Part shown: one piece after another, positions 1,188-64,000 of the stretch | Numbering within the stretch: position 1 is the first letter of the stretch | Layout: each line of letters opens with the position of its first letter | DNA from: Schmidtea polychroa | Taxonomy: Eukaryota | DNA: 64,000 nucleotides | Assembly (NCBI GenBank): GCA_044892525.1 | Contig: CM097885.1 | Location: 200,260,001 to 200,324,000, forward strand | Direction of reading: 5' to 3' | Made by a program: the position numbers and the translations under genes | The notes under the pieces: model-generated | Seen by the model: the letters and a program-made list of their open reading frames with translations, nothing else | Told to the model about the DNA's origin: nothing | The model's database searches: none

Positions 1188-1203
1188 TTTATAATAATAA
1201 AAA

Positions 1204-4688: not shown

Positions 4689-4728
4689 TTTTTTATTTAT
4701 AAATTAGCAAACTGCGCGGCTTGCTGCT

Positions 4729-38191: not shown

Positions 38192-38198
38192 TATCTAT

Positions 38199-41100
38199 TG
38201 TTGGCGTATGTGGAGAAGAAAAATAAATTATACATGCCTTTCCATCACACCTATCAAGCATCATGGCTCCGTTATACATTTTCTACACATACTCCAAATG
38301 ATTGATTGCATATTCCCACATATGAGCCCATGGTGATGTTCCATGTTGGTGCTGCTCACACGGGTCGGAAAAGGTTAGCAGGTGAGCCCCTGCCTTAGGA
38401 CTACTCCTAACCCTTTCTCAGTTCGGGTCCCACGGTGCCTTAGAAGGACTTACCCATATACATGCGTGTCACTCGGTCTGATCCTGGTCCAAAGGAACAA
38501 CCTTCAACCTTAATTATCTTCATTCCGCAGCATTATCTCATCTACTCTAATTGCACAAACAAATATATGAAAGCTCGACAAAACTAAAATCAAACAGAAA
38601 ATTTTATTGACCCTGAAACGATAAAAATATCATTACTACTAACAGATCAACAACAGTCAAAAAGATATAACATTAGCAACATTCACGAGATAATTTACAA
38701 CTCAATGAAGAGGAAATCAAGCTCAATTTTACATCACATTAAACAAAGTTATCCCCATCGGCCAGTATCTCATCTATGTCGACCGGTAATCGGCTATCTA
38801 CAATGTATTTGATGCCCTCAGCTGGAACAATGCGGAAGACTTCCTTTGAGGGGATTGAATGGGAGGACGTTATCTCTTGGATTTTTGATTTCGCCGCCGA
38901 TAAGGACGTCTCGAGTGCTGTCATCGCATCTCGGCGTTTTTGGTTCTTCTCGGCTCGAGTTGGCCGTTTCCGTTTGCGGGTAGTCGGGGGTTTTTCGGTG
39001 TTCGTGGTACCGATTGGTGCTACCAAGATTGGAGCTACGATGGGATCAGTAGGTCCACCTATCTTTGGCTGGTGACATGACAACACCGGGGGTGGAATGG
39101 GCGGCAGTTGTGAGCCGTGCCCCTGGCAGTGCGAGCCGGAAGATGTAGGAGACGGGTGGTGACGAGGAAAGACATTCGTCCCATCCAGAACGGGGAATTC
39201 TCGCACCCGCTTAGCCAATTCTGCCTCCGTATATACCTTATGGAGGGCTTCTGACTGTGCTTTGATGGTGAGCCGCTGACAACGGCTTTCCTCTAGCAGG
39301 CTGTCCCTGCAATGCTCTAATCGGAGAATTTTCTTGCGTTCCTCTTTCATTTGTGGCGGGGAGAACCACGTTCCTTCATAGAGATCAATTCTCTTTTTGA
39401 GAGCCCCGATATATAAGTGGAGTTGGGCGATATCCGCGTTCTTGTCCGCACAAGAAAAACACGGGCGAAGTTCTTTGGCGTTGTTGGACGATGTAGCCAT
39501 CTAGAAAATCAATCATTGTTTATATTTACTCGAAGAAACCTCTATCAGTGTGAAGAAAAATCAAATTTTTGGGCATGGTTTTGGAGTTTGATCAAACATA
39601 CCACCCAACGATGACCCACACACTTCTTCATCCATCTCTATACGCAGTCATTCAGTTGCAAACATTCAAATCTCTTCACCTGATTCGTGTAATTTAAGAA
39701 AAGGAAACGGGGATTCGTATACCAAAAATTCTTTCTACACAAACCTCGCCCTTTGAGTTTAATTTCGGATGGGCCATTCCCAGGTAAAACCCGTCTTTTA
39801 CTTTATCCCCTTCAACCTTGTTCCCATTAGTATATTTTAATTAAGAATTTTTGCCGATATCATTATGGCAATTCGTCGAGGTAGGCCTGCCTAACATTAC
39901 AGAGAAATAATTCACGGCGACGGAATAGATTATTTATGTTTTTATCTCGTTCAAAATTATGGAATTGATCGTGTAATCAGTTGAAAATTCAGCTCTAATC
40001 TACATCTAATTAATTCCAATAACGCGTCGAAAATCGTCGTCATGGAAAACGTTTACTTGTGATTATGCATTATGATTGACTGTGTAGGTGTGTCATTACT
40101 CCTGGTGGTATCTGTAACTGTATGTTGGCTATCTCCGCGAATGATGGTTTATGCTGTTATGATAAATTATTGTATATCGAGTTGTGTAGGGGAAATCCAT
40201 CCCCTTACTTCATCCTATTATCTCGCTATTCTAGAGAAATTTATACCATCATGCCGCTATTACATCACCAAAATCGTTGATTTCCTTTTACACTGCCCTA
40301 TGCATATTTGACTGTGGTGCGTGTGTATGTGCATGCTCAAGTCGGAATATTAGCGGTTGCGTAATAGATTCCTCAAATAAGCAGCCGTAGATGAATCGAA
40401 AAATCAGATTAATCAATCTGAGTGGGCGACAACTTCATAGATTATTGGGTAAGCTCAACAATATCATCTAATTTCCTTTTACGATATTAATTCAGATCAA
40501 TGACTATCAGCTTATTCATTTGACATTTTCCCAGAAAAGTTAACATGTTATCTCCTTCTCCAGGACGTTATCAGATATCTCCTGTCGACTAACTCTACGC
40601 AGGCTAATGCAAATCAACTGATTTCGTTATCGTTGACAACTACTGTCTGCGGGCTCGAAGTAAGAATTTTGATAATTTCACTACAAGATGTTTACTTCCC
40701 TGTCAGCGAGAGATTCTTTATCACTGGCATTGGTGACTCAAGGACGACAATCAAATCGTAAGAGTACATCGACAATGGATGTAGCCGCTAACATCATGAC
40801 GGCACAAATCAGACAGAACCTTGCAAACGCAGAGCGTCACCGAAAAATCGTTGGATTTACTTGCAATCTATGGTCGACACCGTTCTTTCCTAACTACGTC
40901 GATTGACCGGCTGAATATCACGAAAAGAATTTTCCTCCTATCTATGTGGATTATCATCGAATCTGTACGAACGTCACTGCCTATCTCGCTCTGAATTGTC
41001 TGCATTCGGAATTCAAATCATCTCTACATCTACTGGAAATCTCGATTTAACTAAATGAACCGATGGTACGCTCTACAGACGATCGCGCTTGATGAAGGAA

Positions 41101-42433
41101 CGGTCATTTATTAACTGGATGTTCCACCTACTGAGTTTCTTCACCCCTCACGACACACCCAAGAAGGCATTCATTGCTGCCACCTCCTTGCACCGTCATG
41201 AGGGACCAATCAACTCTTTTCCATTCAATCAAATCAACAATATAATAATCAAACTGAATGATAGAAAATGCATAAATAAAATTTACCCGGCGACCATATC
41301 ATTTGGATCTCCGAGTATGATGTTGCTCCTCCTACATGATCGAAACCTCATCGTCTCCTTGGTGGATCTCTAATATGACAAATATCACTCTCTACAAATA
41401 TCACATTCTCTTTTCAGCATGTTCGTGATTTCTTATGCATACCAACCTTTCCACGGTGGTGTCCTCTACTGCAGTGCAATTCCAACTCGTCCACATCATA
41501 CTGGGAGCTCTCAGATGGTACAGTCGTCGGTACCATGAAGAAAGGCAACTTTTCATTTAAATAAATTTATTATAAGAAATTGTTTTATTATATTTATAAT
41601 GATTAACTAAATTAAACTAATAACCATAAATAAAACAACTGTCGAGGCATACCTTGAGTTTCGAAAACTGAAGTTAAATCGGTTGAATTTAAAATTTTTC
41701 CCGAATGGATTTGTAGTTTGGCCTCTATATATTTCTTCCTCGGTTTGGTTTGGTAATCTCTGAACTAGTTCGCTGTAGGATAATTAAAGGTTCCGAAATC
41801 TGTCAAGTCTGTAGAAAAATTTTTTAAAAGTGGTAGTATATAACGAACCGAAGTTTACCTGTAGAAAAATTTTTTAAAAGTGGTAATCTACAGATATTTT
41901 CCGTTCCTTATATATTATTTTTCGTCCAATCAGGACACGACTTGTTTGTATTTTTACTATTTATTATTATTTTTATGTTTTTTATTATAATATATTAGAT
42001 TTTAATGACTTAACTTATTTCCTATTATTATTTTATTTATTTTCTTATTTTTATTATTTTCCTCCTATTTTTCCTGTGGATTTATTGCTACTTTATTGTA
42101 ATATAATTTTTTGTTTTAATTAGACTTAAAGATAGTTTTATTTTTTATTTATTTCTTAAATTTCTCTTTTATTTGTTGTCACTTTTTTACTTATTTTATT
42201 CTATTTCATCTGCTGGGTCCTAAATCGCTTTATTTCTAAATCTCAAGGGGTTTATTGGGTTTTATTTAGTTTGTTTTACTTATTCTTATTCTCTTATTGA
42301 TATTTTATTGTTCCTTTTTGATTTATTAGCGAGAATTTGATGGTACTTTATATTTTTATTTTATTTCGTTTATTTTTCAAGGATTACTTTTCTATTCGCT
42401 CCAGTTTTCGAAACTCCACGTTTTAGCCCAACA
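38199..42433 (-). repeat. Putative 3' LTR, 4235 bp
   Basis: Bounded by TGTTGG (38199) and CCAACA (42433). TATA-like sequence near 41730, AATAAA near 41570, 27-bp direct repeats 41809-41835 / 41859-41885. The second LTR is not in the window and the PPT is non-canonical. Confidence 0.65.
38739..39500 (-). CDS. LTR-encoded hypothetical protein (CxxC, coiled coil, Pro-rich, basic NLS-like stretch)
   Basis: 253-aa ATG-initiated ORF in GC-richer sequence; CFSC, RKRKRPTRAEKNQKRR. Confidence 0.65.
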   Translation of the reverse strand: MATSSNNAKELRPCFSCADKNADIAQLHLYIGALKKRIDLYEGTWFSPPQMKEERKKILRLEHCRDSLLEESRCQRLTIKAQSEALHKVYTEAELAKRVREFPVLDGTNVFPRHHPSPTSSGSHCQGHGSQLPPIPPPVLSCHQPKIGGPTDPIVAPILVAPIGTTNTEKPPTTRKRKRPTRAEKNQKRRDAMTALETSLSAAKSKIQEITSSHSIPSKEVFRIVPAEGIKYIVDSRLPVDIDEILADGDNFV

Positions 42434-42664
42434 AATCACTCCGGGGCCCGTTAAAATTGCGCCCCGCAATTCACATAATATCATACGTTTAACTCATACC
42501 TTTTTTCGGCATAACAACTAATTTCACGGTCAACATTCACACAAACATAAAATTAAAATAACTAAATAATACTTTAATTAAACAGATAAAAGGACAAATA
42601 TAAGCAAGCAGTGGCCACTTTAGGTGACCGGATTTATACACACAAAGTTTATGAATGGTCGATG

Positions 42665-43291
42665 TCACATGATCTCAAGGTTCGGAATGTCTTGGTTGGT
42701 TGAATTCTGGGTCGGATGGCTGGTTGAAGTTGTTATCGTGGGGAGCTGGATTGTAACAGGCATTTGGTCAGGAGATAGATTTTGTTGCATTTGGTCGGGT
42801 GGGTTTGGTTGTTGAAAATGTACTGCTCGTTTATGTTTATTTTTCGATCGTGGGTTCTTTCTTTCGTGTTTCTCGGATAGTGACTGGTTTCTTCTCCATG
42901 TTCGATGAATATCATACGCTTTCCAGATGACTAGTGCGCAGATGATAAGGGTTTCACTGATGGTAGTATAGAGTAAGACTTGGCTTTCTTTTACTTCCTT
43001 CTTCATGATGATTTCCTTCAAGGATTGTTGGGTGGTTTGTTCTTGTAAGAGAATTTCGAGCTGTTCGATTTTTTGGGTTTGTAGGTGGAGTTGCATTTGA
43101 AGTTTTTGCCAGACGGCTTTGTTCCAGCATTGTTTCGGGATGTTGTTGGAGAGCTTTCTTTCGCTTTTCAGTTTGGTTAACGGGTTTTGCTGTTTCTCGG
43201 GATTCTCCCAGAATGTTGGGATTGGCTGCCACATGGGTATTCCGTTTATCGCTATCATCATTATTGTCACCAGGGTTGCTCCGAACCACAT
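42665..43291 (-). CDS. Accessory type I membrane-like protein
   Basis: Hydrophobic N-terminus MWFGATLVTIMMIAING, coiled coil, TM-like LLYTTISETLIICALVIW, basic and Q/P-rich tail. Confidence 0.7.
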   Translation of the reverse strand: MWFGATLVTIMMIAINGIPMWQPIPTFWENPEKQQNPLTKLKSERKLSNNIPKQCWNKAVWQKLQMQLHLQTQKIEQLEILLQEQTTQQSLKEIIMKKEVKESQVLLYTTISETLIICALVIWKAYDIHRTWRRNQSLSEKHERKNPRSKNKHKRAVHFQQPNPPDQMQQNLSPDQMPVTIQLPTITTSTSHPTQNSTNQDIPNLEIM

Positions 43292-43346
43292 ACTACTATA
43301 CGAAAATTTTTATTTACAATTATTTACATTGATCATTCATCTTTAA

Positions 43347-44048
43347 TTATTGCCGGGTTTTCTTTTTACGGGTTTTCTCGGATGTTCTCATCACTCTCGT
43401 TTCTGCTTTTATTACTCGTTTTCTCAATTCGGGTAGTACTTTTAATTGTTTGTCTCTTTCGTCTAACTGTTGCCTTAGGGTTATTATTTTTTCTTTTAGT
43501 GCTTTTATTTCTTGTGTTGCTCTTTCGAGGTTTTTATGGTTCATTATCTGTAGAAAATCATTTTCCCTTTCCCCGTCTTCTTCGTTGTCTATTTCCTGGT
43601 ATTTGTTGTTCATTCGTCTCATTATCTCACATTCTTTCTGTTTTTGGTGTAGTTGGAGTTGTAACTCTTTCAGGCTTTCTTGGTGTTTCCGTGCCTCGGT
43701 TTTCCAATAGTCACTAATCACTTCGTCGGCCTTTCGACTGGCCCTCTCCTGCCATAATTCTTCCGTGATCTTTTCCCAATTTCTCCCTCGCTTTCTTTGC
43801 TCGTGAAGCCATTCGTTTTCTTCCTCTACTTCTTTCTTTACTCCTTCTAACAAGATATATTCTCTTTTCAATACTTTAATCATTTTTCGATTATCTCTCC
43901 ACCTTTCAACTAATCTTTCGTTTTCCTGTCTCTCTTCTTGTAATTCTTCCTTGATAGTTTTCTTCCTCTCTACTTCATCAACTTCAATTTCTCCCTCTTC
44001 TAACTCGATTATAGATGTTATGCTGGGTTGTCCGTTTTCAGTGTTCAT
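43347..44048 (-). CDS. Accessory coiled-coil protein
   Basis: 233-aa ATG ORF, E/K/R-rich heptads, upstream TATAAGC. Confidence 0.75.
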   Translation of the reverse strand: MNTENGQPSITSIIELEEGEIEVDEVERKKTIKEELQEERQENERLVERWRDNRKMIKVLKREYILLEGVKKEVEEENEWLHEQRKRGRNWEKITEELWQERASRKADEVISDYWKTEARKHQESLKELQLQLHQKQKECEIMRRMNNKYQEIDNEEDGERENDFLQIMNHKNLERATQEIKALKEKIITLRQQLDERDKQLKVLPELRKRVIKAETRVMRTSEKTRKKKTRQ

Positions 44049-44222
44049 TTTCTATAATATATACATAATTAATAATTGCGCTACAGTGCGGCTTATACTT
44101 ATACATTTATATGTTATTTTATAATCAGGGTTACAGTCCCTTTCATACTTTTACTGTACCATTAATTTTTTTGGTTGGGATACAGGTCCCGATTTTTATA
44201 TTTTTTATCTTTCCTTTTATCT

Positions 44223-45260
44223 TTATACAAAGGTCTCTTCCTGGCCTACATATCCCTCATCGCTTTCTACTGACGTTTGTAATTGGAGTGCGATGGGATC
44301 AAATGGGATGTAGTACCGGGGAATCTGCGCTCTAAGTTCTTGCACTTCGTCTCTTAGTGCTCTTGACACGTTAAGTTCCTCGTCCAACAGGTATGTTAGA
44401 TACCTGGTTTCATCGTCTCTTACCTCTATCTGTTTTTCTAGCTCTTCCGCTTTTTCGCCGTTTTCCCATTTCTTGATCTCTATCTCCAGATTTTTAAGAT
44501 TTTCGTTATACATTTTCCTTTCGTTTTCTAACTTTTTGTTTTTCCCCGCCAGTACCATATTTCTCTGCTCCAGAGCTCCTTGGTATCCGTTGACATCTCG
44601 TTCTAGTTCTGCGACCTTATTCACCAGTTCCACGAGTCGTCCTGACTGTTGAAGTATCAGTTCTTCCATTGCGGCATTCTCGTGCTCCCTTATGGAGATT
44701 TTCATGGCTAGATGTCTTTCAAATTCCATGGCTTTGGTCTGCCATGTTTGGCTTCGGGTCGCAATCTTTCTGAGCCGTTTCAGTTCTTCTCTTATGACCA
44801 GATTTTCCTCCCATTTGCCTTGTTCGCTTTCGTATTCTAATCTCATAGGCAATTCTTTCATTTCTTTTTTCATCTCTTTGTTCTGCCGCTTCCAGTTTCG
44901 GGCTTCTGCCAATAGGTGATTCATTTTCCTTCCTTCCTTTTGTTTTTCTGCTTCTCGTTTTGTGTTTTCGTCCGTCAATCGTTTCCGTGCTTCCTGCACT
45001 AACTGTTTTAAATAGTGGCTGTGCGCTTCTTGGCGAGTGTTTTCCAATGATGCCCACTTAGAGGCTCTTTTGCATGCTTCTGCTTCGGCTCTTAAATTGT
45101 TTACTAACCACTGATATTTGTTATTCTCGTATTCCCTGGCCTCTTCGAGATGGTTGTGGGTCTGGTTCGTCAATTGTAACATTACTTTGACCCATTTTCC
45201 CTTATGGATTTTATTGACTTTGGTTTCGTGGTTTGGGGCTTCAGTTCCTTCTTGTGTCAT
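44223..45260 (-). CDS. Accessory coiled-coil protein
   Basis: 345-aa ATG ORF, long heptad repeats, upstream TATAAGC. Confidence 0.75.
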   Translation of the reverse strand: MTQEGTEAPNHETKVNKIHKGKWVKVMLQLTNQTHNHLEEAREYENNKYQWLVNNLRAEAEACKRASKWASLENTRQEAHSHYLKQLVQEARKRLTDENTKREAEKQKEGRKMNHLLAEARNWKRQNKEMKKEMKELPMRLEYESEQGKWEENLVIREELKRLRKIATRSQTWQTKAMEFERHLAMKISIREHENAAMEELILQQSGRLVELVNKVAELERDVNGYQGALEQRNMVLAGKNKKLENERKMYNENLKNLEIEIKKWENGEKAEELEKQIEVRDDETRYLTYLLDEELNVSRALRDEVQELRAQIPRYYIPFDPIALQLQTSVESDEGYVGQEETFV

Positions 45261-45480
45261 CTTTGTCTAAATAACGATATCATTAACTTAACGTTGTACG
45301 CTTATATCTGGTTTATTATTTATTTATTTTTATAATTCGTTATAGGAGTTGTTTTAGGAGTTTTTCGCTTAAGTTTACCTTTGGTAGATTTGGGGGGAAT
45401 TTTTCTACACTACTATATAATATTTTACTGGATATATACGCCGATATTTACAATTAGTATATACAAAATTATTCGTCTCT

Positions 45481-46869
45481 CTACTCAGTCCTACCCTTCC
45501 CGTCTCGCCTCACCGCTATTTTCATGTATATAGTGTCGTTTCTCGTCATGTCTTCTACTTTCCGCTGTAGGATGAAATTTGGTGCTCCAGTTGCTGGTCC
45601 TTCTTCTTCCAAGGGCCTTTGGTAACATACGAGGTTTCCCGCTGTATGGAAACTCTGTTCGTGTATACTTTGATAGTTCATCATTGCGAGGTCTATTTTT
45701 GCTTTGAATGGCCATTCTATTAACTCGTCGTATGGCCCTTTGCACATCAAGAAGAATACTGAGAAATGCGTTCCGTATGCACTTCCATCCCCATTGGGGT
45801 ATGCTTTCATTTTCATTTTATACCCGTTTTTCCATGAGTAGAATGCTGGACTTAGTAATGTTGTATCCTTTCCATTTCTCGCTCTCTGCATCTTCTCTTT
45901 TACTCCCGTTATTTTCCATATGTACGGAGCCGTAGGTATTAATTCGTTGAGGTTTAATTCGCTTACTTTTTGATGTAGTTCTTTCACCATAATGTTGCTA
46001 GTTTCTACTAGATCTGTCTGTATCTTTGTACTTGTTCTCGCCTCTTCAAATGCTTCCTTTTCTTCCAATAGTTCTTTTACCAACGCTTTTAGCGAGACTA
46101 TTTCTCTTTCTAAGTTTTCGGTTTTCCTTTCGTTTTCCTGTAATACCGTTGACCATATTTCCGCGTGTGTTGATACGTTTTCTGCTAGATGTTGGGGTAA
46201 TTCCCCTCGGTGTAATTGTTTCGGACATCCCCATTTTCCTAGCACACACGTTATCTTTTTTCTTTCACACTCTTTTAGATGTTGAGCGAGTTTTATTACT
46301 CCGGGTTTATCGCATTTGTTGGGGCATTCTCCTCTGAATTCTGCGCACACTTTCTCCTCTTGTATGTTGTGATGTTGACTGATTAGTTTCTTCCAGGTGT
46401 CGTTTTCTCCGCAATACTCGCATTTCTCTAGTCTTTCTTCGCATCGACTTTGATGTTCTGCTTCTTCATTGACTTTAATCTCTTCTTGGCAACGTTTGCA
46501 TTGACTGATTTTATACTCACATTGCTCCATATGTTGCCTCACTTCCCATATCACTCCTCGCCAATTACATGGGGTGTTTTTACATCCTAGGTTTGCATTC
46601 AACATATCTTTTACAGCTGCTTTATCTTCGTTTGTATCTCCCAAACTTGTTATCATTGTTTCTTTGCATACTGGGCACCATTGTGGTCCCTTCTTTATTA
46701 TCTCCTCTACACATTCTCTGCACATTCTGCATCCACATCTGGTTTGGTGAGGTTCTCTTAATAAGCTCTTGCATATTCCACACGTTACATGGTTGTGTAT
46801 TCGAATTGTGGTGGACTTTCTGATTTGTTCAACAATTTCTCTGAATTCTTCTCGTTGTCGCTTATCCAT
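45481..46869 (-). CDS. TRAF: TNF receptor-associated factor homolog (RING - TRAF zinc fingers - coiled coil - MATH), intronless, inside the retroelement
   Basis: CGIC...CGCRMCREC...CPVC RING; CKNTPCNW...HMEQC and CEYC zinc fingers; MATH YIWKI...SPAFYS...GYKM...YPNGDGSAYGTHFSVFF...GPYDELIEWPF. Confidence 0.93.
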   Translation of the reverse strand: MDKRQREEFREIVEQIRKSTTIRIHNHVTCGICKSLLREPHQTRCGCRMCRECVEEIIKKGPQWCPVCKETMITSLGDTNEDKAAVKDMLNANLGCKNTPCNWRGVIWEVRQHMEQCEYKISQCKRCQEEIKVNEEAEHQSRCEERLEKCEYCGENDTWKKLISQHHNIQEEKVCAEFRGECPNKCDKPGVIKLAQHLKECERKKITCVLGKWGCPKQLHRGELPQHLAENVSTHAEIWSTVLQENERKTENLEREIVSLKALVKELLEEKEAFEEARTSTKIQTDLVETSNIMVKELHQKVSELNLNELIPTAPYIWKITGVKEKMQRARNGKDTTLLSPAFYSWKNGYKMKMKAYPNGDGSAYGTHFSVFFLMCKGPYDELIEWPFKAKIDLAMMNYQSIHEQSFHTAGNLVCYQRPLEEEGPATGAPNFILQRKVEDMTRNDTIYMKIAVRRDGKGRTE

Positions 46870-46958
46870 TTCTATAATTATATGTATACATATATTCGTT
46901 ACTGGTACAGTTTCGTATTTTTATTTACATTTATTTACATTGCTATTTTAGGTTATAT

Positions 46959-47342
46959 TTATTGGCTGGAAGAGTCGGCCTCTTGTCCGCCCTCTTCCCT
47001 GTTGGTTAACCATTCTGACCAGTCTTCTATCTCCTCTCGCTCCATCTCTTCCGCGATTCTTATTAACTCCTCTTCTTGCACCTGGCTGTATCGTGATATT
47101 CGGTCTATCTCTCGCTGCATTTGTTCTATTTTCATTCGTTGGTCTTCGATTATTCTTACATAATTGAAGCCTTTATTTAAACTTTCGACTAAGCTTCTTT
47201 GTACAGCGAGTCCTTGTTCCTGTAAATTCGAAATCACTTGAGTTAACATTGCACATTGTTGTTTCCACATCTCCTCGGTTGTTGTACTGTGGTTTACTTC
47301 CTCGCCTATTCGCTCCATTCTTAATTTATATATACTTTTCAA
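46959..47342 (-). CDS. Small accessory coiled-coil protein
   Basis: 127-aa ORF (TTG start; first Met at 47318), acidic W-containing tail, upstream TATAAGC. Confidence 0.6.
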   Translation of the reverse strand: MKSIYKLRMERIGEEVNHSTTTEEMWKQQCAMLTQVISNLQEQGLAVQRSLVESLNKGFNYVRIIEDQRMKIEQMQREIDRISRYSQVQEEELIRIAEEMEREEIEDWSEWLTNREEGGQEADSSSQ

Positions 47343-47486
47343 TCCTTATCTAATTTTATTTTCATATTAATTATCCCCATCATTATATACTATTGATACC
47401 GCGCTTATATAAAAATATAGAATACTGTTATATAAATAAATATTTCCTACTTACTTTTTACAATCTATATACAGTCATAATCCTTT

Positions 47487-54500: not shown

Positions 54501-57500
54501 GATCGATTCCTAAATCTGTCTAAGAATTTTGGTTTGTTCTTTTTCAGTTGCGTCCTTGTTGCTTCATCATACATTGTTTTCCGAAATCGTCTACCGACTT
54601 CCTCGTCAGTTCCTTTTATTTTTGTCAGTATTTTGATCAATCGTTTTATTCTATGTATGTCTTTAGAATGACCGTGCAACACCATTGTTTTTGCCAAAAA
54701 TGGTAGAAAGCCTACTATCAATTTCCAATTTACCTTCTTTTCTCTCTTATAGATATCAAAACACGCTAACATTTGAGTCAATATTACTCTAACTATCTGG
54801 ATAATAAGAATGATTCCCAATATTCCTGCCATCATTTGACCGAACACTAGAAATCTTCCCCACATTGCTTTCATCATGTTTGACGTGGCTTGTTGAAAAT
54901 GATCAGGTGACAATAATAGTTCGTAATTGGGGCCTGACTGGAAATTCGTTCCCCCAGTTATGGTAACCATATTCGATAGAATGGATTCCCGTCTTGCTGG
55001 GAATAATACGTTTAATCGTGCCGTTTCTAAATCCTCTGGTGAGTACATACCTGTTTTTGACACATCAATTGGTTTGAAATCTTGTTCTGTTGCGAGTTCT
55101 ATTAGTCCAAACTTTTTAGGCTCTTGTACTTCGGTTTTTACTGGTAACATTATCCATTTCCCATCGGGTTTTTCATATAACGGTCCGTATGCATTTGAAC
55201 AGTTAAAGGTGTTCGGATAAAATCCAATTGGGTTCATGATTCGAGTGACGGGTTGAACGAATCTGTTTCGCCCTTTGTAACTAATTTCCAACTCGTTTGC
55301 GCATTTCCCTGGTGGAATTGTGGGCTTTCTTGGCAGTCGCGCAAATGTCTTGGTACATGCATATGTATACATTACCTCTCCCACCATTCTACCAAAATGT
55401 CCATCCGGTAACGGGAGTGATGGCATTGTGTTATCTGGGTGTGTTATTGCGATGGCTAATTTTGTTTTTAGTATCTCTTTATTCAATGAACAGTCATTTT
55501 GTATAAGATCGTAATACACTTTTTGCATTGTCGTTTGTCCTCGGTGGAACAAGAAGTCCATCTTATTATTGGCATACAGGTACAATTTTACGTCCTCCGT
55601 TGCTACCTTTCCCACTGCTCGGTCTATTACTTGCCTTGACATGTAGATACCTGCGTAGTTCGTCCGGTATACTATACTGTCACATTTGGTGGTCTCTTTT
55701 TCTCTAATGAATCTCATGCCGATGTCTGGATCATCGGTAATTAATGCCGTTGGTGTTTTTTGGGTTGTGAGTCTCTTTTCTTTGGGGGATGGCGGAACTG
55801 GTTTCCCATTTCGCATCCTTACGTTTCCATTCTCTTCATCGTCATCCTCGTTTTCGTAAATTTCTCCTTTTACTTCATTGAATAGAGCACTTTTTAACAA
55901 TTGGAGTCGGCATTTTTGGGTGTTAGCTTCATATATTATAGTCGAAATCCCCGTTCTACACACGTTTTCCGTAGCTCTGCATGCTGGGTTGGTTTTCATT
56001 TGATAGTTGTTTGCGTCGAATTGTGCTTCGTATTCCTTCAACTCCACTGTGTAGGACTCAATTACTACTACTCCTGATATCACCTCTCCTCTGATCGTAT
56101 ATGTGCCTCCGTTACATGATCCATCCGTTGATTTTACTCGTCCGGCTACATAGATACTTTCCGTCTTGATCATTCCGCTTTGTCCGTGTATTGTTACTCC
56201 ATCCCTGATTCTCATCGCTCCGGTTCTAAAAAGCTCTTTACAGTCTTCCCGTTGTATAGGTACTATTTCTTTATCTAATCCAGGTAATATGAGGGTTGAA
56301 TATGAGTATTGTCCACAGTAATATGCCAACACTTTCTTCGATACTACGCATTCTCTAGCTTGCGTTCTAATGAAATCTGATTCTTGGTATACGTGATAGG
56401 AGACTTTCTTTTTTACTATATCTAATTTATTCGGAGACGCCTGTCTACATTCCTCTATATCTCTCAGGGAGTATCTTTCTCCTATTATCGAATTGTCACA
56501 GTCGTAAATAGTAAATCCCGCGGCTCCACTGGTGCAGAGCATCCATATCATCATGGTCATCATTAGTGAATTAATCGACGCTTTTCTGCTGGCTGGGTCT
56601 TTCAATGGCAATTCCCATTCTAGCTTGTTTAGTAATTTCTTCAACCGAATTTGCATTGATCTCTCTTGCTCGTTTTTTCGTGGCGCTTGTATGAGTCTTT
56701 TCCACCCACCGGCGCGGATAATATGTGGTTCGATTGTATTTTCGATGATTGTAACGGTCATTTCTACATGATTTGCGAATTGTTTGTTAGGTATTTTCCT
56801 CGCTGCTAATCCCATCAAATTGTACATTAGATACGTTAATACTACTAAATGATGTTCGTCGTCGTTTGCGTTTAAAGTTAATTGTTCAATTACTCTTCTT
56901 GTCTCTTCCCAATCGGTTTTAGTGGTTTTTGTCTTCTCTTTGATTAATTTCGGAATTATTCCGGATATTGTATTCCATAGTTGTCTGGCGTCTACGCTTG
57001 CTACTTTTCGTTGCCATAACCGTCGCAATTGTGGGTTCGTTATTATTAGCATATCTTTTACTAGCTCTCGTATCCATTTTTCGCCTCTTTCGATAGTTGG
57101 CTGGGCCTCTTTTAGATCCCACACTATTTTATCCAGTTTCTCTAATCTGACTTGTCCTTGTTCTTGTTTCAGTTGTTCTCTAGTTTTAAATTCCGGTTTT
57201 TCTCCTTGCTTCTTGGGTCTCCCTTTTGCCCGTTTTTCCATCATTGTTCCGGCTTCCCTTGTATTTTCATAATTCGGGTTTCTCTCGTTATCCGTTCTTG
57301 GCAATGAGCTATCGTTGTTTCTCAGCCATTCGTTCCATTCGTCTATTATTTTGTCCGTTTGACCTTCTGGTGTTGCTTTCGTTGGTCCTTTCTGTCGTTG
57401 GAATTGTTCGTCGGTTTCGGTTTCTGTTGTATTATCGATAATCTCCTCGATACTCAGCTTATTTGGCTGCTGATAGCTAGTTGACGGTTGGCTTGTTGTC

Positions 57501-60500
57501 CATATTTCGGCTCCTGTCGGCCATCTTACCAGAATTGGTGATCTTTCTCCAGCTCCTTCATCGCTGTCTTCCAATATAATTTCCTCGATTTCCTCGGTTT
57601 CATTCGTTTTACTTGCCACTTTGTTAGGGCTTGGTGTACTCAAGCTACCTTTCGTAGGTTTACTGGATTTGCTCTTCCTTTTAATCGGTTTTCCCAATGT
57701 TTCTGCCATTGTCAATACATTGATCTCCCCCAATCTCATGGGTGTTATTCCGACATCTGCATTATCATCCAACGATTTTCCGAATAGTTGTAGGTGAAAT
57801 GGAGTTTCGTATGCTAATTTCTTTTTTAACTCTCTGATCTTTGTTGTTGGATGTACTTCTGTATCCTCAATGCTTTTGTCGGGATACTTGACTCGGATAC
57901 GATACCTTTCCTGGGTATCTTGTGCCCATTCTTGGTTTCTCCATTTCCTAATAATTTGTTCTAGCTGTTCTGGGTACCATTCGTTATATTGTCTGTATTC
58001 CTCAATCGCTTTCGCCATTTCTCTTAGATTGTGGATATTCTCTGATGTCTTTAGGATGATGTTAGCCAATGCTATTACTTGACGTTTTTGATTTTTTGTT
58101 CCCGTTGCTAAGATATCACCTAATTGTTTATATCTTTCCTTCTCTTCTCGTTCTCGAGCTTCCATCGCTTCTTCGCTGTCCATATCGGCATATTCGCGTT
58201 CTTTCTTTCTCATCGCATGAATATGTCTGGTTTCCGTTTCACTTTCTGATGTAACATCCGTTTCGCTTTCGTCGTCCGATGTCGATTCTATTTCGTCCTC
58301 TTCGTATTTTGGAGGTTCATCTTCCTCTTCTTCTGATTCGCTTTCTATCTCACCAATGTCTGTTTCCACGAAAATCCCTTTCCTGATTTCCCATTCTTTG
58401 TTTTCCGCATTCCACGTCCTTTCCCATGGGGTTCGTCTGCAGGATCTAACACTTAGTTTCTTTATTTTTCCTTGAAGCTCTTTTTCTTTTAGCCACTGTT
58501 GATGAATTTCAATTATCTCTACTGATTTTTGATATAGCGTTTTCATCCTGTCTCGTATTTCTTTCTGGTATGTTATATCTCTTGTTCGGAATTCGTCCAT
58601 GGGCAATATTCTGATGATTTGATGATTATCCCACATTCCCATTTCGCTTAGCGAGGTGTCGTCTTCGGCCCGTAATATTATTTTATCGTACATCATGACT
58701 ACGTCATCTATCATCCCGTCGCTACTCTCGCTTCGTACTTTTTCCGTTATCTCTTGGTTTATCTTGGTTACTAAGTCATCCACCGTACTCTGATTACTCA
58801 TCTTTATTCGTCGTTTCTCCTCGTTTGGTAACCATATGGTTATTTCTAATTTCTGCGGTTGCGTTTCTTTCAACCTTCCATATTTGTGGATCAAATTTAT
58901 GGTTCTCCAATCGCTCATCCTGAGCAATTCTGTATCTCGTAATCGGCTCATTAGTTCATGCATGTCTGGAGTTCGTCTTGCTATGAGTAAATCCCAGTTA
59001 TCTTCGACTTGTTCTTGAATTTGTTTGATTAATTTATCTAGATTTCGTCGCAAGGTGCATTGTTTTATTTGTTCCAGCTTCAGCTTGATGTTAAAATCAT
59101 ACTCGGCCTTGGCGTCTTTAGCCCATTCGTGAATATTTGCTGGTTGCTTCTCTTTATACAATTTCAATATTTGAGTTTCTCCTGGCCAGATCAATGCATC
59201 TATTAGGTGCATGTCTGGCTTAATTTGTTCTCCTTGATATTGATATAAATACTCTTTCTTTCTCGAGCTGCCCAAATGTTCTCTTATCCAATCAAAAAGC
59301 TCGTCTGTGACTGCATTTTTTATCCATATTCTCTCGAGTCCTTTACTCGTTCCGATTTTTATTACATAGCGTGTTGTCTCCGCTTGTTTCATTTTTTCCA
59401 TATACTTCTTTATTATCGCTTTTTCCTCGTTTGGTATTAGATCTTTTTCGTTTCTTTCTAGTTTCATTATCTTTTGTAAGAAGCGTTTATATGGTATAAG
59501 GTCGATGAACTCCTGGTTTCTTACTACCACTGGAAGTATTTCCTTTACTTGTTTTATCGCTTCTTCTCTTTCTTTTCTCAATTTCATTTCGATATTCTCG
59601 TCTTCGCTTTCGCTTGTCACGTCGCTTTCTCTTTCATCCTCATCTGCTCCGATCTTTTCTCTTAGTTGGTCGATATTTTCATTTAACTGTAACATTTCTC
59701 CACCAAGGCTACTCACATAATCCTCATCGTCATCTGTTGACAACACCTTCTTTGTTGTCCTCATCATATTAATTCGTAAATTTTTCATTCTTGGTACTTT
59801 CTTTAACTTTTTGTTCTCGAGTATCGTTAGCTCCTCTGAGTCTAATTCTCGTATCATATTATGCTTTAGATGATTAATCTGTTTTCCATTTTCGTTATTT
59901 TCTGCTTCTGCTTCTGTTTTTGTTTGCTCATTTTCTCTTTCGATTTTATCTTTTATCTTTTTCCAAAATATTTTCTGAATTCTCTGATTTCCTTTTAGCG
60001 GTGTTGTTGAATTTTCCTTTTTTGCTGCTGGAATTGTTTCTTTCGGTTTCTCTGGTTCGCTCATAGGTACAACTCTTGGATTTTTACCGTAATTGTAACA
60101 ATATTGCTCCTTTATCTCCTTTACCATCCTCATCATATTTATTCGTAGTGGTTGTTCTTGTCGCTGCTGAATTCGCTCTCTTTTTATCCTTTCTTCTTCA
60201 GCTTGTAGTCTTTGCCATTCTTGTGCATGTTGTTGCACTTCATAATTGTTAAGATTCTCGGTGCTTCTCATCATGCGTATATTCTGGGTTTGTTGTGGTA
60301 CTTGCTCTTGTCTCGGTCTCATCATTTGTTGCATCATCTGCTTCATTTGTGAAATTTCTTGCATCACATTCATTTGCTTTCCCTCACTAGGATTACTTTG
60401 TCGTTGCGGATTTGGTGCATAGTTATTATTTCGCTGTGGTGGTCGTTGCTGTTGGCTCCTTTCTCGACAGTCTCTTGAGATATGACCTGGTTGCCCGCAG

Positions 60501-61924
60501 TTAAAACATCCTCTCGATTGGCATATATTTTCCGTGTGTCCTCGTCGTCCACACCTATTGCAATTTGCGTTTCGGTAACAATCTCTATCCCAATGTCCTG
60601 GTTTACCGCATGTTCGGCATTGTTTGTTATCGTTCATATTTCGTCGATTATTAAAGTTGTTCCCATTGTTCGAGTTGTTGCGTTCACTGTTATTCCCGTT
60701 TGATCGTCCTTGTGGTGGTTTGAAAATTTGATGCGCACCTGGTATAAACTGATTCATCTTTGGTTCATGATTATTGTTATCTCCATTTTCCGTTTTCACC
60801 GCTGCTGTTGCGATTCTTCCTTCCTCTTGCATGACATTCATTTGTGCCGGGAGGTGTAGTTCGCATCTTGTGGCCCAATCTATAGCTTCCTCTAGTGTTT
60901 TACACATTTGACATCCCACCGAGGCCCTTACCTCTTCTCGGCGTAGTCCTTCTATGAAGTACCCAATTAAGTTTTCCTCCGGCAAGTTTCCGTTCATGGC
61001 CTTCTTTGCCAATCTTCGCAATTCACTTGCGTATAACGTAATTGACTCGTTTGCTCTTTGTTTTCTACTTGCCAGTTCACCTAACGCTTGATTTATCGGT
61101 TTGCTGGCTCCGAATGTTTTTCTCAAAAATGTTTTGATGTTTTCCCAATTGTCTAATTTCGTATTTCTTTCTTTTGCTTCCAGATACACTTCGAGTGCGC
61201 TATCGCACAAAAACAGAGGCATTCGTTTACTAATTGCTTCGGATGTCCATCCACACACATCGATATAGACTTCAAAATTGGTTATGAACGTTGCCAACTT
61301 GTTCGCATTCCCGTTGAACGGTTCGCCTCTAAATTTTTCTTTATATTCGTCGGTTTTTGCTACATTCATCTTGATTGGTTCTTGAAATGCTAAAATTTCT
61401 TTTAAATTTTCTAATGATGTAGCTAAATTATGGACGGATAATTCTTCTGTTGACCCGGTTAGGTTGTTTGTTATATCGGATAGACTTTCTCTACTTCTAG
61501 ATCGACTGGGCGTATGTCCGGCTGTGGGGTTTTCTTGATCGTATATCGGTGTTTTGTGGGGTCTTTTTGCTCCTTGTGATATTCCTCTCTGCTGCCTAAA
61601 TGATCGTCCTCTTTTGAGTTGATCTAATTCGTCTCCTGAAAATAATACGTCTCCTGGCTTACTTGAAGATCTAAGGTTGGGTTTATCCGTGATTTTCCTT
61701 TTACTCTTTTCTGTCTTTTCACGTGGATTTTCTACGGTTAGCGTCTGCTGAATTGGTCGAGTTCGGTTTTGATATTGTCTTCCTTTGTGCGGGTTCTGAA
61801 TTGCTTTTCCTGGGTTGTTTGTATATTCTCTGGATTCCTCTTGAGCTGGTTCTGAATTGACTTGGTTGGATTGATGTCTACAATGAAAATATGATATCGT
61901 GTTGCCTTTGCTTACACGAATCAA
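51560..61924 (-). CDS. Polyprotein N-terminal part: Gag, UBL x3, Bcl-2-like, envelope glycoprotein, PR, RT, RNase H, IN zinc finger
   Basis: Three CCHC knuckles; DTG protease (about 54130); YIDD RT (about 52915); DASG RNase H; H..RLGGH...CITC. Joined to 47487..51566 by a +2 slip in an (AT)n tract. First in-frame ATG at 61369. Confidence 0.95.
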   Translation of the reverse strand: MIRVSKGNTISYFHCRHQSNQVNSEPAQEESREYTNNPGKAIQNPHKGRQYQNRTRPIQQTLTVENPREKTEKSKRKITDKPNLRSSSKPGDVLFSGDELDQLKRGRSFRQQRGISQGAKRPHKTPIYDQENPTAGHTPSRSRSRESLSDITNNLTGSTEELSVHNLATSLENLKEILAFQEPIKMNVAKTDEYKEKFRGEPFNGNANKLATFITNFEVYIDVCGWTSEAISKRMPLFLCDSALEVYLEAKERNTKLDNWENIKTFLRKTFGASKPINQALGELASRKQRANESITLYASELRRLAKKAMNGNLPEENLIGYFIEGLRREEVRASVGCQMCKTLEEAIDWATRCELHLPAQMNVMQEEGRIATAAVKTENGDNNNHEPKMNQFIPGAHQIFKPPQGRSNGNNSERNNSNNGNNFNNRRNMNDNKQCRTCGKPGHWDRDCYRNANCNRCGRRGHTENICQSRGCFNCGQPGHISRDCRERSQQQRPPQRNNNYAPNPQRQSNPSEGKQMNVMQEISQMKQMMQQMMRPRQEQVPQQTQNIRMMRSTENLNNYEVQQHAQEWQRLQAEEERIKRERIQQRQEQPLRINMMRMVKEIKEQYCYNYGKNPRVVPMSEPEKPKETIPAAKKENSTTPLKGNQRIQKIFWKKIKDKIERENEQTKTEAEAENNENGKQINHLKHNMIRELDSEELTILENKKLKKVPRMKNLRINMMRTTKKVLSTDDDEDYVSSLGGEMLQLNENIDQLREKIGADEDERESDVTSESEDENIEMKLRKEREEAIKQVKEILPVVVRNQEFIDLIPYKRFLQKIMKLERNEKDLIPNEEKAIIKKYMEKMKQAETTRYVIKIGTSKGLERIWIKNAVTDELFDWIREHLGSSRKKEYLYQYQGEQIKPDMHLIDALIWPGETQILKLYKEKQPANIHEWAKDAKAEYDFNIKLKLEQIKQCTLRRNLDKLIKQIQEQVEDNWDLLIARRTPDMHELMSRLRDTELLRMSDWRTINLIHKYGRLKETQPQKLEITIWLPNEEKRRIKMSNQSTVDDLVTKINQEITEKVRSESSDGMIDDVVMMYDKIILRAEDDTSLSEMGMWDNHQIIRILPMDEFRTRDITYQKEIRDRMKTLYQKSVEIIEIHQQWLKEKELQGKIKKLSVRSCRRTPWERTWNAENKEWEIRKGIFVETDIGEIESESEEEEDEPPKYEEDEIESTSDDESETDVTSESETETRHIHAMRKKEREYADMDSEEAMEAREREEKERYKQLGDILATGTKNQKRQVIALANIILKTSENIHNLREMAKAIEEYRQYNEWYPEQLEQIIRKWRNQEWAQDTQERYRIRVKYPDKSIEDTEVHPTTKIRELKKKLAYETPFHLQLFGKSLDDNADVGITPMRLGEINVLTMAETLGKPIKRKSKSSKPTKGSLSTPSPNKVASKTNETEEIEEIILEDSDEGAGERSPILVRWPTGAEIWTTSQPSTSYQQPNKLSIEEIIDNTTETETDEQFQRQKGPTKATPEGQTDKIIDEWNEWLRNNDSSLPRTDNERNPNYENTREAGTMMEKRAKGRPKKQGEKPEFKTREQLKQEQGQVRLEKLDKIVWDLKEAQPTIERGEKWIRELVKDMLIITNPQLRRLWQRKVASVDARQLWNTISGIIPKLIKEKTKTTKTDWEETRRVIEQLTLNANDDEHHLVVLTYLMYNLMGLAARKIPNKQFANHVEMTVTIIENTIEPHIIRAGGWKRLIQAPRKNEQERSMQIRLKKLLNKLEWELPLKDPASRKASINSLMMTMMIWMLCTSGAAGFTIYDCDNSIIGERYSLRDIEECRQASPNKLDIVKKKVSYHVYQESDFIRTQARECVVSKKVLAYYCGQYSYSTLILPGLDKEIVPIQREDCKELFRTGAMRIRDGVTIHGQSGMIKTESIYVAGRVKSTDGSCNGGTYTIRGEVISGVVVIESYTVELKEYEAQFDANNYQMKTNPACRATENVCRTGISTIIYEANTQKCRLQLLKSALFNEVKGEIYENEDDDEENGNVRMRNGKPVPPSPKEKRLTTQKTPTALITDDPDIGMRFIREKETTKCDSIVYRTNYAGIYMSRQVIDRAVGKVATEDVKLYLYANNKMDFLFHRGQTTMQKVYYDLIQNDCSLNKEILKTKLAIAITHPDNTMPSLPLPDGHFGRMVGEVMYTYACTKTFARLPRKPTIPPGKCANELEISYKGRNRFVQPVTRIMNPIGFYPNTFNCSNAYGPLYEKPDGKWIMLPVKTEVQEPKKFGLIELATEQDFKPIDVSKTGMYSPEDLETARLNVLFPARRESILSNMVTITGGTNFQSGPNYELLLSPDHFQQATSNMMKAMWGRFLVFGQMMAGILGIILIIQIVRVILTQMLACFDIYKREKKVNWKLIVGFLPFLAKTMVLHGHSKDIHRIKRLIKILTKIKGTDEEVGRRFRKTMYDEATRTQLKKNKPKFLDRFRNRSNSSDSDDDDNGNDKYPYPSRNPNEKPIETAPYWEKEKTNTWIANGSYIPPDIVGQQTALTMTQNRYPQLPSQPGMNYMPTRRTKSVDQADDVRTIAVMSSPGGAAVTVMIQINGKETSAMIDTGANVSAIAINQIPSKCWKDIEQTTIHIIACSKETVDVVGRWWTTLRYQDNEIETYLAVIPKLSEPCIIGTDLMPELFKEVVIDLTTMCLKDKMGRICKMNAIIRCPEKIIVPAKSQMICQIKVDAGMEGEVIFEPSKSFEKRRELPLAREIITINEDGEIPINITNFEEEDKIIYENERLGRLTPMIDIELPKITNETTKADELWIIDSTLLTEKEKERLQQLLIEYKDIFAISDLDLGACDVTLHAIPLIDETPIALRPYKLAEKQKEIAEAEVQKMLDAQVIEPSCSPWQFPVVMVKKKDGTQRFCIDYRKLNAVTKRDTYPLPDINEMLLMLQGAAYFTSLDLKSGYWQIKVKEEDKEKTAFTLGRDLYQFRKMPFGLTNAPASFQRCMNFVTHGIKQCMVYIDDLLIYSATFEQHLEDIRNVFVRLRQWKLKLKPSKCDWAKEKVTFLGHIVSAKGKEPDPRNIEKIKTCPAPKTVTQVQEFLGLCGYYRKFIKNYAGIAKPIQELVKKDISFIWGAEQQKAFETLRDKLIEAPILVHPDFKKPFLLATDASGYAAGAILGQLDEEGKERVIGYYSRTFKKHEKNYSVTEREALAIIQAIKHFRYLLWGHEICITTDHQPLVWLGQHKEASSRLMRWAMQLQEYSPFIKFKAGRANANADCMSRFIFPDLVDHEMQRICLMVAEDLDFCQLRKDQQEDTELKQIIEYVKTGKAEVYEKDQKLKEHMDKHRHRYIIEKDWLLIMDGEKRLMCIPENRRKDLLTQYHDGRLGGHMSSKKTLARMKQKYFWPTLTEDVTEWVKNCITCATRKNTGTKWKAPLKPMPVPAEPMTMISMDVVGPLPESDRGNIYIYW
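54690..56576 (-). other. Envelope glycoprotein domain, chuvirus-G / herpes gB-like class III type
   Basis: Internal signal peptide ...WMLCTSGAAG|FTIYDC; Cys pattern ECVVSKKVLAYYCG.YS; CSLNKEIL...GEVMYTYAC...C.NEL.I.Y...FVQP.TRI; TM WGRFLVFGQMMAGILGIILIIQIV. Confidence 0.8.
56690..57090 (-). other. Bcl-2-like domain within the polyprotein
   Basis: BH2-like IEPHIIRAGGWKRLI preceded by a helical bundle with a W-containing BH1-like region; no NWGR motif. Confidence 0.6.
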
Positions 61925-62591
61925 TCATTCCTTTTTGCCACATTCAAGCACAGACACCGTTTTAGGGCCTCTGTTATACTTCTCTTCATTTCCCCTCATA
62001 CACTTCTTCGCGGAATATAATTACCCATCAACCCATATTTTTCGTCGATTTTAAATTATCTATTTGGGGTAGTAACAATTATCTATATAGTCGTATAAAT
62101 TATCTATAGTTAGCATTTATAATATCGATAGGTCGTTGTCAGTTACTGCTTATTACCTCCCATATTTTCTTAATCCTTTTACGCGGTTCCGCTATTTTAC
62201 TTAATCTTTCATCTCTGTTTCCCCTTATTTGGTTCTACTCTGTAACCAAAACAAAATTCGTTTAACCGGTTTAAACCAAAAAAAATTCTGTAGAACTTTG
62301 TCTACTTATCTGGGATCCCTTTTAATTAATTAATCACCTTCCTCTTTTACTCATCACTTATTCTTTATTTTCATTATCTCTTTAATTCATTTTCCTTTTC
62401 AGTTTCTCTTTCTCACTGAAAAAAAAATTTCATTATTACCTCCCACGAGCTCGTTTAATCCTTTCTAAATTCAAATACCATATTTCAAACTCACTTTGCT
62501 TCTAGCTAGCTTTAATATTCCATCTCACTAGTAATTTAAATGTTATCAACTTGTAGCTTGAATGCTATCTCACTATTACTTTAGGCCTTTA

Positions 62592-63029
62592 CGACTGGCT
62601 GGCACTTTTCAACAGCTCAATCTTCTTCTCCTGACCGGTTGGACTATTCAACAACTCGATCTTACGACTGGCTGGCACCATTCAACAGCTCAATCTTCTT
62701 CATCTCCGAACTGGCTGGACTTTTCACAGCTCAGTTTTAATTTTTCCTGACCGGCTGGACTTTTCAACAGCTCGGCCTTAATATCTCCGACTGGCTGGAC
62801 TTTTCACAGCTCAGTTTTAATTTTTCCTGACCGGCTGGACTTTTCAACAGCTCGGCCTTAATATCTCCGACTGGCTGGGCTTTTCACAGCTCAGTTTTAA
62901 TTTTTCCTGACCGGCTGGACTTTTCAACAGCTCGGCCTTAATATCTCCGACTGGCTGGACTTTTCACAGCTCAGTTTCAATTTCCCTGACCGGCTGGACT
63001 TTTCAACAGCTCGGCCTTAATGTCTCTAA
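62592..63029. repeat. Tandem array of ~40-bp monomers organised as 80-bp dimers, in the internal leader upstream of gag
   Basis: Four near-perfect 80-bp units 62711-63029 plus three diverged monomers 62592-62710. Confidence 0.95.
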
Positions 63030-63609
63030 ACTCTGCATGCTTCCGTTCCTTTTCTGTCTTTATTCTATACTGTCATCTTCCTATTTTTACTTTTATTTGT
63101 CGACTTAATCTGTACCGCTTTGGAAGGTTTCCCCTTTCCCCCCTTGCTTAAAACGCAAAACGATCGCATTGATCCATTTCTACATTGGTATGGTGATCAG
63201 CCATACCGCAGAAACTTTTCAATATTCGCGATGGTACCTCGCCTTACATCTCTTACTCGGGGTGATCGGTTGTCCCTTCCCAAATGGTTCCAATATCGTA
63301 CCTCCCGAAGGTGGCTCGGTTTATTCCCCCTTTAGCACTATGATGGGACTAGTTCCACTTTAAATAATCAATTTAAATTTTTAAAATGCCCTTTCTTCAT
63401 GGTGAAAATTATAACAACACAAATCGATTTATAACTTCGTATAATGAAATGAATACACAGAAAGGATTTATTAGTTATTTACTCCACATTACAGATAATA
63501 TATGCTATCATTATAAAACATTGCCGAATTAATTCAGAACAAAAATATCAAAAATGTTTAATCTAATTGTTAATCATCCAGTTTCCTTCACCGAGCGACG
63601 ATCGCATAC

Positions 63610-64000
63610 CTAACTGAAGTAGATGGTGTGCTTCTCTTTTATTACACATGTGCACATAGAACAACGGATTAAACCGGCGGCGCATTCGTCACAATGGCTA
63701 AGGTGCCCACAAGGTAGAATCAGAATTTTGACAGGTCGCATCTTGCAAATGTTACAAGTTCTCAAGGCCGCTGCTTTCTCTACTATTGATGTTCGTATCC
63801 GCTGAGACAGAGTTTTGACTCGTTCGCGTATCCTCACATATTCGATGTTCAGAGCGGGGTCGTCGAGACGTTGCTGAAACCATTGGTAATGAATAGACAA
63901 GTCGGTATCGGTATTTGTTGATCCTAATCTGTCGGTTAGAAAGTTTTGTTTGGATATCAGCGGTGCGTTGTGGCTTTGTTGTTCTAGCAGTTCTATTTGT
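63610..64000 (-). CDS. C-terminal IAP/MDM2-type RING finger protein, 5'-partial (frame open to the window edge)
   Basis: CNICKMRPVKILILPCGHLSHCDECAAGLIRCSMC...TIYFS; the 33 codons upstream of 63900 are also open. Confidence 0.8.
   Translation of the reverse strand, partial: QIELLEQQSHNAPLISKQNFLTDRLGSTNTDTDLSIHYQWFQQRLDDPALNIEYVRIRERVKTLSQRIRTSIVEKAAALRTCNICKMRPVKILILPCGHLSHCDECAAGLIRCSMCTCVIKEKHTIYFS

Follow-up and report, generated by a model that had tools for sequence, protein, structure and literature searches.

What kind of agent is the block of long open reading frames (ORFs) that fills positions 38199-64000 of a 64,000-nucleotide stretch of the planarian Schmidtea polychroa, and what are its host-like genes for? 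The stretch, called the window below, comprises positions 200,260,001 to 200,324,000 of contig CM097885.1 in GenBank assembly GCA_044892525.1 (G000:C1:200260001-200324000). The block has raised GC content, a strong strand skew and long ORFs on the minus strand, on which all stranded features of the element lie. A sequence-only reading of the window had proposed an enveloped Ty3/gypsy element of at least 30 kb carrying a kit of apoptosis and ubiquitin-related genes. Our preferred reading, to which we give a probability of about 0.72, is that this is a recent copy of a giant Ty3/gypsy element of the Burro type, whose selected envelope and cargo genes likely spread it between cells and block the death or signalling of those cells.

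The element is a complete copy of a Ty3/gypsy long terminal repeat (LTR) retroelement, 30,585 bp in total with an internal region of 22.1 kb. Its 3' LTR occupies 38199..42433 and is followed by the target duplication; its 5' end was read in the neighbouring DNA (stretch L001), where the 5' LTR lies at L001:1549-5783 (window-equivalent 64549-68783, past the window edge). Both LTRs are 4,235 bp long with TG...CA ends and a 6-bp inverted repeat, and the pair aligned over its full length has 2 mismatches (0.05% divergence); because of this low divergence the copy is very young and recently inserted. The target-site duplication is the 4-bp ATAG, adjoining an AT microsatellite. Seven nucleotides after the 5' LTR, and also past the window edge, is a primer-binding site (L001:1524-1541), 17 of whose 18 bases complement the genome's tRNA-Pro(CGG) after addition of CCA. 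Its spacing is the same in 19 of 23 loci, one base longer in one, and unscored in three. The 5' LTR, primer site and target duplication expected by the sequence-only reading are therefore all present, as is its length of at least 30 kb. The leader contains tandem repeats (62589..63026, no strand assigned) with an 80-bp unit repeated 4.1 times and a 34-bp unit repeated 3.1 times, and the 3' LTR has a CCAAT/TATA-like box near 41930-41910. Directly after that box a segment of about 27 bp is directly repeated (41890-41805), with a donor-like GT after its first copy. Beside the element, at 37690-38198, are an AT microsatellite and a short inverted-repeat stretch resembling a miniature inverted-repeat element. 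Elsewhere in the genome, tRNA-Pro(CGG) and tRNA-Arg(CCT) form a tandem array with a 442-bp period (L123, G000:C3:142534343-142537364), and a 22-nucleotide pattern has about 2,200 genome-wide matches at one mismatch.

Most of the internal region encodes a polyprotein. One frame of 3,454 amino acids (aa; 51560-61924) matches, in Pfam, Retrotrans_gag, CCHC knuckles, the viral fusion glycoprotein family PF24664, protease, reverse transcriptase (RT), RNase H and the H2C2 domain of integrase, and the next frame (47487-51584) matches the integrase core and ankyrins (E 7e-19); the order protease-RT-RNase H-integrase is that of the Ty3/gypsy type. Gag (60425..61369, first ATG at 61369) has a capsid domain and three CCHC knuckles. 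The envelope (54749..56602) lies in the same frame and consists of a signal-like stretch, a PF24664 fusion ectodomain (E 7e-72) of the chuvirus/mononegavirus-like, gB type, and a transmembrane helix; the signal-like stretch, identified by eye, falls under the threshold of a hydrophobicity scan. Protease, RT, RNase H and the integrase zinc-binding domain follow (51560..54178), then the integrase core and C-terminal part (50790..51584), two ankyrin-repeat modules (48795..50597), and a tail (47487..48794) with an acidic stretch, a signal-like hydrophobic stretch, a Cys-containing domain and a transmembrane helix. The hydrophobic stretches fit the envelope transmembrane helix plus a second pair of signal and transmembrane segments at the polyprotein end, and the tail, for which a family search gave no match, is predicted to be a second surface protein. 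A Pfam search of the element did not confirm a dUTPase-like region, and a word-index protein search with polyprotein aa 600-1650 found 0 relatives among 7,992 candidates. A similar env-pol polyprotein is deposited under the name of a metagenome-assembled bacterium (P0012) and probably comes from a mis-binned animal contig.

The earlier claim that nearly all frames are intact agrees with our finding of a single frameshift, in a short AT-dinucleotide run at about 51560-51584, which breaks the polyprotein where the integrase core begins and places the core in another frame in this copy. The frameshift is not the family norm; across 20 copies the junction is open in 14, not open in 5 and without a match in 1. 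From stop to stop the polyprotein is 4,808-4,817 aa in many copies, and an unbroken frame of at least 4,700 aa was found in 66 of the best 150 scored (hand count). The family is high-copy, with many near-identical members. A 1-kb probe gave 348 genome candidates, the best 40 of which scored at 93-100%, and 84 of the 92 scored matches to the TRAF gene described below are without a stop. The counts for TRAF, for long frames and for the LTR ORF come from best-scoring candidates only and are thus biased to intact copies. All ORFs recur in the same order, at 20-89% identity, in a second subfamily (three copies). The region is repeat-rich, as might be expected of a one-off chimera or a misassembly of several elements; this idea is refuted by the matching LTRs, the target duplication, at least 20 pairs of the LTR ORF spaced about 26.3 kb apart (hand count) and the presence of the cargo in other copies with the same ORF order, and we give it practically no weight.

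Between Gag and the envelope the polyprotein carries the first of its host-like cargo. Direct searches with the Bcl-2-like helical domain (56630..57184) gave no match in Pfam, PDB (phmmer) or Foldseek at E 0.001, and the best match in an Atlas search (0.84) is unnamed. A profile combining this domain with those of sister families places Bcl-xL first (E 7e-4, and E 2e-3 in another run) and reaches five host-type Bcl-2 genes at 88%, and in related families of this genome Pfam recognises Bcl-2 at the equivalent place before env (E 6e-5 and 0.027). The Bcl-2-like domain proposed earlier is thus a weaker item, supported by profile and not by direct match. Pfam also recognises Bcl-2 in dispersed repeats elsewhere (L080, L081 and L082; G000:C1:34771000-34780500 and others), many of which contain one TAG; L080 lies near a helicase/ATPase-like ORF and is without Burro domains nearby. 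These repeats are possibly another mobile family carrying Bcl-2.

Three ubiquitin-like stretches lie within 57695..59380 (59380-59147, 58855-58595 and 57907-57695). All three had been called ubiquitin-like domains; the third has a weak Pfam ubiquitin match (E 0.012), the second weaker ones (0.03-0.17) and the first none. A joint profile with five sister-family units matches ubiquitin, ISG15 and NEDD8, and a profile from the sister units alone recovered only the third stretch. By these matches we would rank the third above the second and the second above the first, and regard the set as a weaker item of the cargo.

Six further ORFs are separate from the polyprotein. Upstream, an ORF of 159 aa from its ATG (63610..64000, with its start at L001:1089 past the window edge) has a predicted coiled coil and an IAP-type RING whose best matches are the cIAP1/XIAP RINGs (E 4e-9), which bears out the earlier assignment; neither a Pfam scan nor a best-match search found a BIR domain in it. 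Downstream of the polyprotein is a 119-aa ORF with a predicted coiled coil (46959..47318), followed by a full-length intronless TRAF (45481..46869) with RING, zinc fingers, coiled coil and MATH. In its frame (45481-46920) Pfam identifies RING, zinc finger and MATH, and the best solved matches are TRAF3 and TRAF2 (E 5e-28), so that the full TRAF of the sequence-only reading is upheld, as are its ankyrin modules by the Pfam match given above. A protein search with the TRAF found only 6 distant proteins (24-28%). Two more ORFs with predicted coiled coils (44223..45260, 345 aa, and 43347..44048, 233 aa) precede a 208-aa membrane ORF with a signal-like start and one transmembrane helix (42665..43291). 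A family search with the coiled-coil ORFs gave no match.

Is this cargo used by the element or merely carried? We sampled 20 of the 92 TRAF-bearing loci, weighted to divergent ones, with two stretches per locus. Each variant was scored a single time, as synonymous or non-synonymous relative to the codons of the window. The resulting dN/dS values use variants common to at least two copies and ignore transition bias, which is bounded by non-coding controls, and tree shape. Most modules match over 80% of their length in 18-20 of the 20 copies; the exceptions are the pre-gag frame (9/20), the 233-aa ORF (13/20) and the membrane ORF (12/20). The lowest dN/dS values are those of integrase (0.01), the capsid (0.02, within a range of 0.02-0.08 for Gag) and envelope aa 1775-2300 (0.02). 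The Bcl-2-like domain (0.03) and ubiquitin-like stretches (0.03-0.04) are next, followed by the ankyrin modules (0.06 and 0.09), the TRAF (0.09-0.13), the coiled-coil ORFs (0.12 for those of 119 and 345 aa, 0.14 for that of 233 aa), and the RING ORF and polyprotein tail (0.16 each). The fastest-evolving is the membrane ORF at 0.37. In twelve non-coding frame controls the value was 0.55-0.96.

Purifying selection acts on every cargo module, and on the envelope with its signal-like stretch, ectodomain and transmembrane helix. Because of this, the envelope and cargo genes likely work for the element. Of the three conditions that the sequence-only reading named as refuting it (a missing 5' LTR, cargo lacking in other copies, neutral evolution of the cargo), none was borne out. 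If the cargo were instead host DNA that was passively transduced and is now hitch-hiking and decaying, a fast-evolving ORF often found incomplete, such as the membrane ORF, would be expected. The same idea would suit a 44-row MATH tree, where the domains from the elements are separate from most host-like rows and fall, with weak support (83/74), beside one host-like tandem gene. Against it stand the cargo values of 0.03-0.16, bar that one module, compared with those of the 12 controls, and frames that remain open between subfamilies with 41-67% protein identity. Passive hitch-hiking is refuted for all modules except the membrane ORF, which is itself below its own shifted-frame controls (0.65 and 0.88), and we consider it very improbable as an explanation of the cargo.

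The LTR also contains a selected gene. An ORF of 253 aa (38739..39500), identical in the 5' LTR, has an AG directly before its ATG and an AATAAA about 130 nucleotides past its stop; a Pfam family search with it gave no match. It has 7,052 genome candidates, with no stop in 145 of the best 150 scored, and many of these have no partner LTR 26 kb away among the matches listed. Across 20 loci (72-97% DNA identity) the ORF is broken in none (0/20) and its dN/dS is 0.15, or 0.05 over the first 100 codons, whereas shifted frames give 1.4-2.3. The LTR ORF is thus under purifying selection. The downstream AATAAA recurs in 9 of the 20 loci, and in the second subfamily the ORF is 37% identical. We dropped the idea that this gene derives from an R2-like long interspersed element (LINE), which came from a likeness of 55% over 36 aa to L001:9612-9719. 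A simpler, if not fully settled, reading is that a LINE fragment lies against the decayed remnant of an LTR gene from a related family. A non-LTR RT fragment whose first 36 aa resemble the LTR-gene start (55%) lies at L001:9558-10000 and L002:2-370, and decayed LTR-like pieces at L002:7571-7698 and 9443-9796.

Related families in the same genome carry overlapping sets of these modules. In one sister family a MATH domain lies between the second and third ubiquitin-like units, followed by the Bcl-2-like domain and env, in a frame of 4,791 aa; this is the published layout of Burro1, and the family is 46% (gag), 50% (env) and 35% (Bcl-2-like) identical to our element. Another, with an RT that is 80% identical, has a downstream TRAF and an IAP with both BIR and RING. 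Two smaller families have gag, a ubiquitin-like unit (a Pfam match in one, seen by eye in the other), a Bcl-2-like domain, env and protease in one frame. Judged by these layouts, the families shuffle their cargo, with MATH in the polyprotein or in a separate full TRAF, and an IAP of RING only or of BIR and RING. Capture of the TRAF from the host is plausible; the MATH tree does not fix its direction. That tree did not support a mainly Burro origin for the expansion of TRAF genes in planarians, and the host-like TRAFs sampled mostly fall into groups of their own. By frame length, about 90 of the best 150 MATH matches would be element-borne (five loci checked). Counts of planarian TRAF, IAP and Bcl-2 genes, or RNA interference (RNAi) against them, can thus catch element-borne copies. 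Outside this genome, 977 proteins match the part comprising Bcl-2 and env. A retroviral-type protease follows env in 10 of 12 long matches of this kind scanned, and a Bcl-2-like stretch precedes env in 4 of the matched proteins of at least 740 aa.

Giant gypsy-like elements of Schmidtea mediterranea are known as Burro1-4 or GYPSM1, and a Burro-like element occurs in Dugesia tigrina (PMC6431247). The review section on Burro describes elements of more than 30 kb with MATH_TRAF_C, BIR, ankyrin, BCL2-like, Ubi/SUMO-like and dUTPase-like motifs and accessory ORFs, an env in frame between BCL2 and protease, an internal region of up to about 25 kb, a polyprotein of about 4,800-5,100 aa, and cargo that varies between families. 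It also put forward, in 2019, a provirus hypothesis and the idea of a 'tinkerer' with apoptosis and ubiquitination (PMC6431247). The suggestion that this cargo might be undescribed is therefore wrong with respect to the cargo set, the in-frame envelope and the provirus and apoptosis ideas. Our element has in common with Burro1-4/GYPSM1, as described there, a length above 30 kb, a single polyprotein of around 4,800 aa (that of Burro1 has 4,873 aa), a gag with three CCHC knuckles, ubiquitin-like and Bcl-2-like domains and env in frame before protease, ankyrins, TRAF/MATH, an IAP-related ORF, tandem repeats and accessory ORFs. It differs in the placement of MATH, which is here in a downstream, RING-containing full TRAF, in Burro1 in the polyprotein and in the D. 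tigrina element upstream, and in its IAP part, which is RING-only without the BIR listed for Burro1. Because a BIR and an in-polyprotein MATH are absent, the element is by its layout not Burro1, and still Burro-type. The Burro section of the review makes no mention of an LTR gene or of selection on cargo, and we found no report of either in the literature searched; Grohme 2018 and its supplement may describe both. The architecture is thus already published, and what is added here is selection on the cargo modules, cargo swapping between families and a selected 253-aa LTR gene.

A second comparison is with six GAG-ENV-POL errantiviruses of the HSV/gB type from S. mediterranea, Smed_errantivirus_1-6 (PMC13524379), which share a Ty3/gypsy pol, a gB-type env between gag and pol, and a flatworm host. 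The env segment of Smed_errantivirus_5 looks closest, with about half of the residues identical by eye rather than by computation. The words 'accessory', 'Bcl', 'TRAF', 'ubiquitin', 'ankyrin' and 'Burro' do not occur in the main text of that paper, and its table gives no LTR or primer site for any of the six, in contrast to our element, where both are present (PMC13524379).

How might such an element work? From one long RNA, primed by tRNA-Pro, a single polyprotein of about 4,600 aa would be made and would thread through the membrane of the endoplasmic reticulum. Gag, the ubiquitin-like units and the Bcl-2-like domain would then stay in the cytosol and the envelope would enter the lumen; Pol and the ankyrins would lie in the cytosol again, with the putative second surface protein last. 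Cleavage would be by signal peptidase and the element's own protease; a short motif, seen by eye, recurs at the domain borders. Spliced RNAs, each joining a short LTR leader to an AG just before the ATG, would serve to express the LTR gene and the six ORFs outside the polyprotein. The gB-type envelope could let particles fuse with other cells, and the TRAF, IAP-RING, ankyrin and Bcl-2-like products may act as decoys or ligases on host TRAF, IAP and Bcl-2 pathways. This copy would depend on sister copies in trans because its own integrase is frameshifted.

Large DNA viruses carry viral Bcl-2, baculovirus IAP and polydnavirus or poxvirus ankyrins, for which anti-apoptotic or NF-kB-blocking functions have been shown experimentally, and mouse mammary tumour virus has an LTR-encoded gene. 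The likeness consists in the same classes of host-derived domain on a mobile agent and in a protein gene within the LTR, which in our case are known from sequence alone.

Several points weigh against the preferred reading. The Bcl-2-like domain keeps the BH2 motif and lacks the BH1 signature of five aligned host-type genes, and an AlphaFold single-sequence model of it is of low confidence (pLDDT 54) with no Foldseek fold match; because of both, an anti-apoptotic role is not assured. Selection marks use to the element and would not tell which pathway is affected. Infectivity and manipulation of host survival are inferred. Spliced RNAs are suggested because an AG adjoins the accessory ATGs, within 3 nucleotides in 7 of 7 accessory ORFs of this copy and within 1 nucleotide for the LTR ORF in 20 of 20 loci, counts that were made in AT-rich DNA without correction for chance. 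Before the 3' LTR of this copy there is a GC-rich palindromic stretch and no purine tract. Finally, the Burro-type assignment was made by published layout and domains rather than by alignment to the Burro1-4 reference sequences.

Some of the same evidence would fit an element that is active and moves only within the cell, with its envelope and host-like domains serving particle assembly, membrane anchoring or polyprotein turnover. The Bcl-2-like and ubiquitin-like domains sit in the Gag-side part of the polyprotein, are highly diverged from those of the host and are constrained much like the capsid (0.03-0.04 versus 0.02), and the degenerate BH1 agrees with such a role. In addition, the smedwi-2 phenotype is unchanged by BURRO1 RNAi or RT inhibitors (PMC8532177), and a literature search for particles returned one unrelated result and no paper on them. 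However, an envelope ectodomain with a dN/dS of 0.02 argues against purely intracellular movement, and a full TRAF and an IAP RING as separate ORFs, with a BIR and RING IAP in a sister family, are hard to explain as structure. We consider this alternative unlikely, and prefer an element that spreads between cells. A role in stem cells, which the sequence-only reading had thought possible, has evidence against it from the sister family BURRO1, which is described as intestinally enriched and is de-repressed in differentiated cells on PIWI loss, neoblasts being doubly protected (PMC8532177).

A bolder version of the preferred reading is tentative, and we would sooner doubt than accept it. The Burro lineage may still be live and consist of complex infectious retrovirus-like agents whose swappable kit of captured TRAF, IAP, Bcl-2 and ankyrin genes blocks cell death and innate signalling, and whose LTR has its own selected gene. 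The solo LTRs, of which the genome has very many, might then be free-standing expression cassettes for a trans-acting regulator. With the evidence on selection, cargo swapping and the LTR gene, the 2019 suggestion that Burro interferes with apoptosis and ubiquitination is narrowed to a short list of single proteins that can be assayed.

Other mobile elements lie outside this one in the window. A Polinton/Maverick-like fragment (789-4703) has an integrase with a phospholipase-A2-like domain, a double-jelly-roll capsid and an A32-type ATPase. It is followed by a hAT fragment (9042-9692), a Tigger/pogo-type DDE transposase (16268-17446), a run of 133 N (29779-29911), and a GIY-YIG fragment (31413-31979) within inverted repeats (31482-32733).

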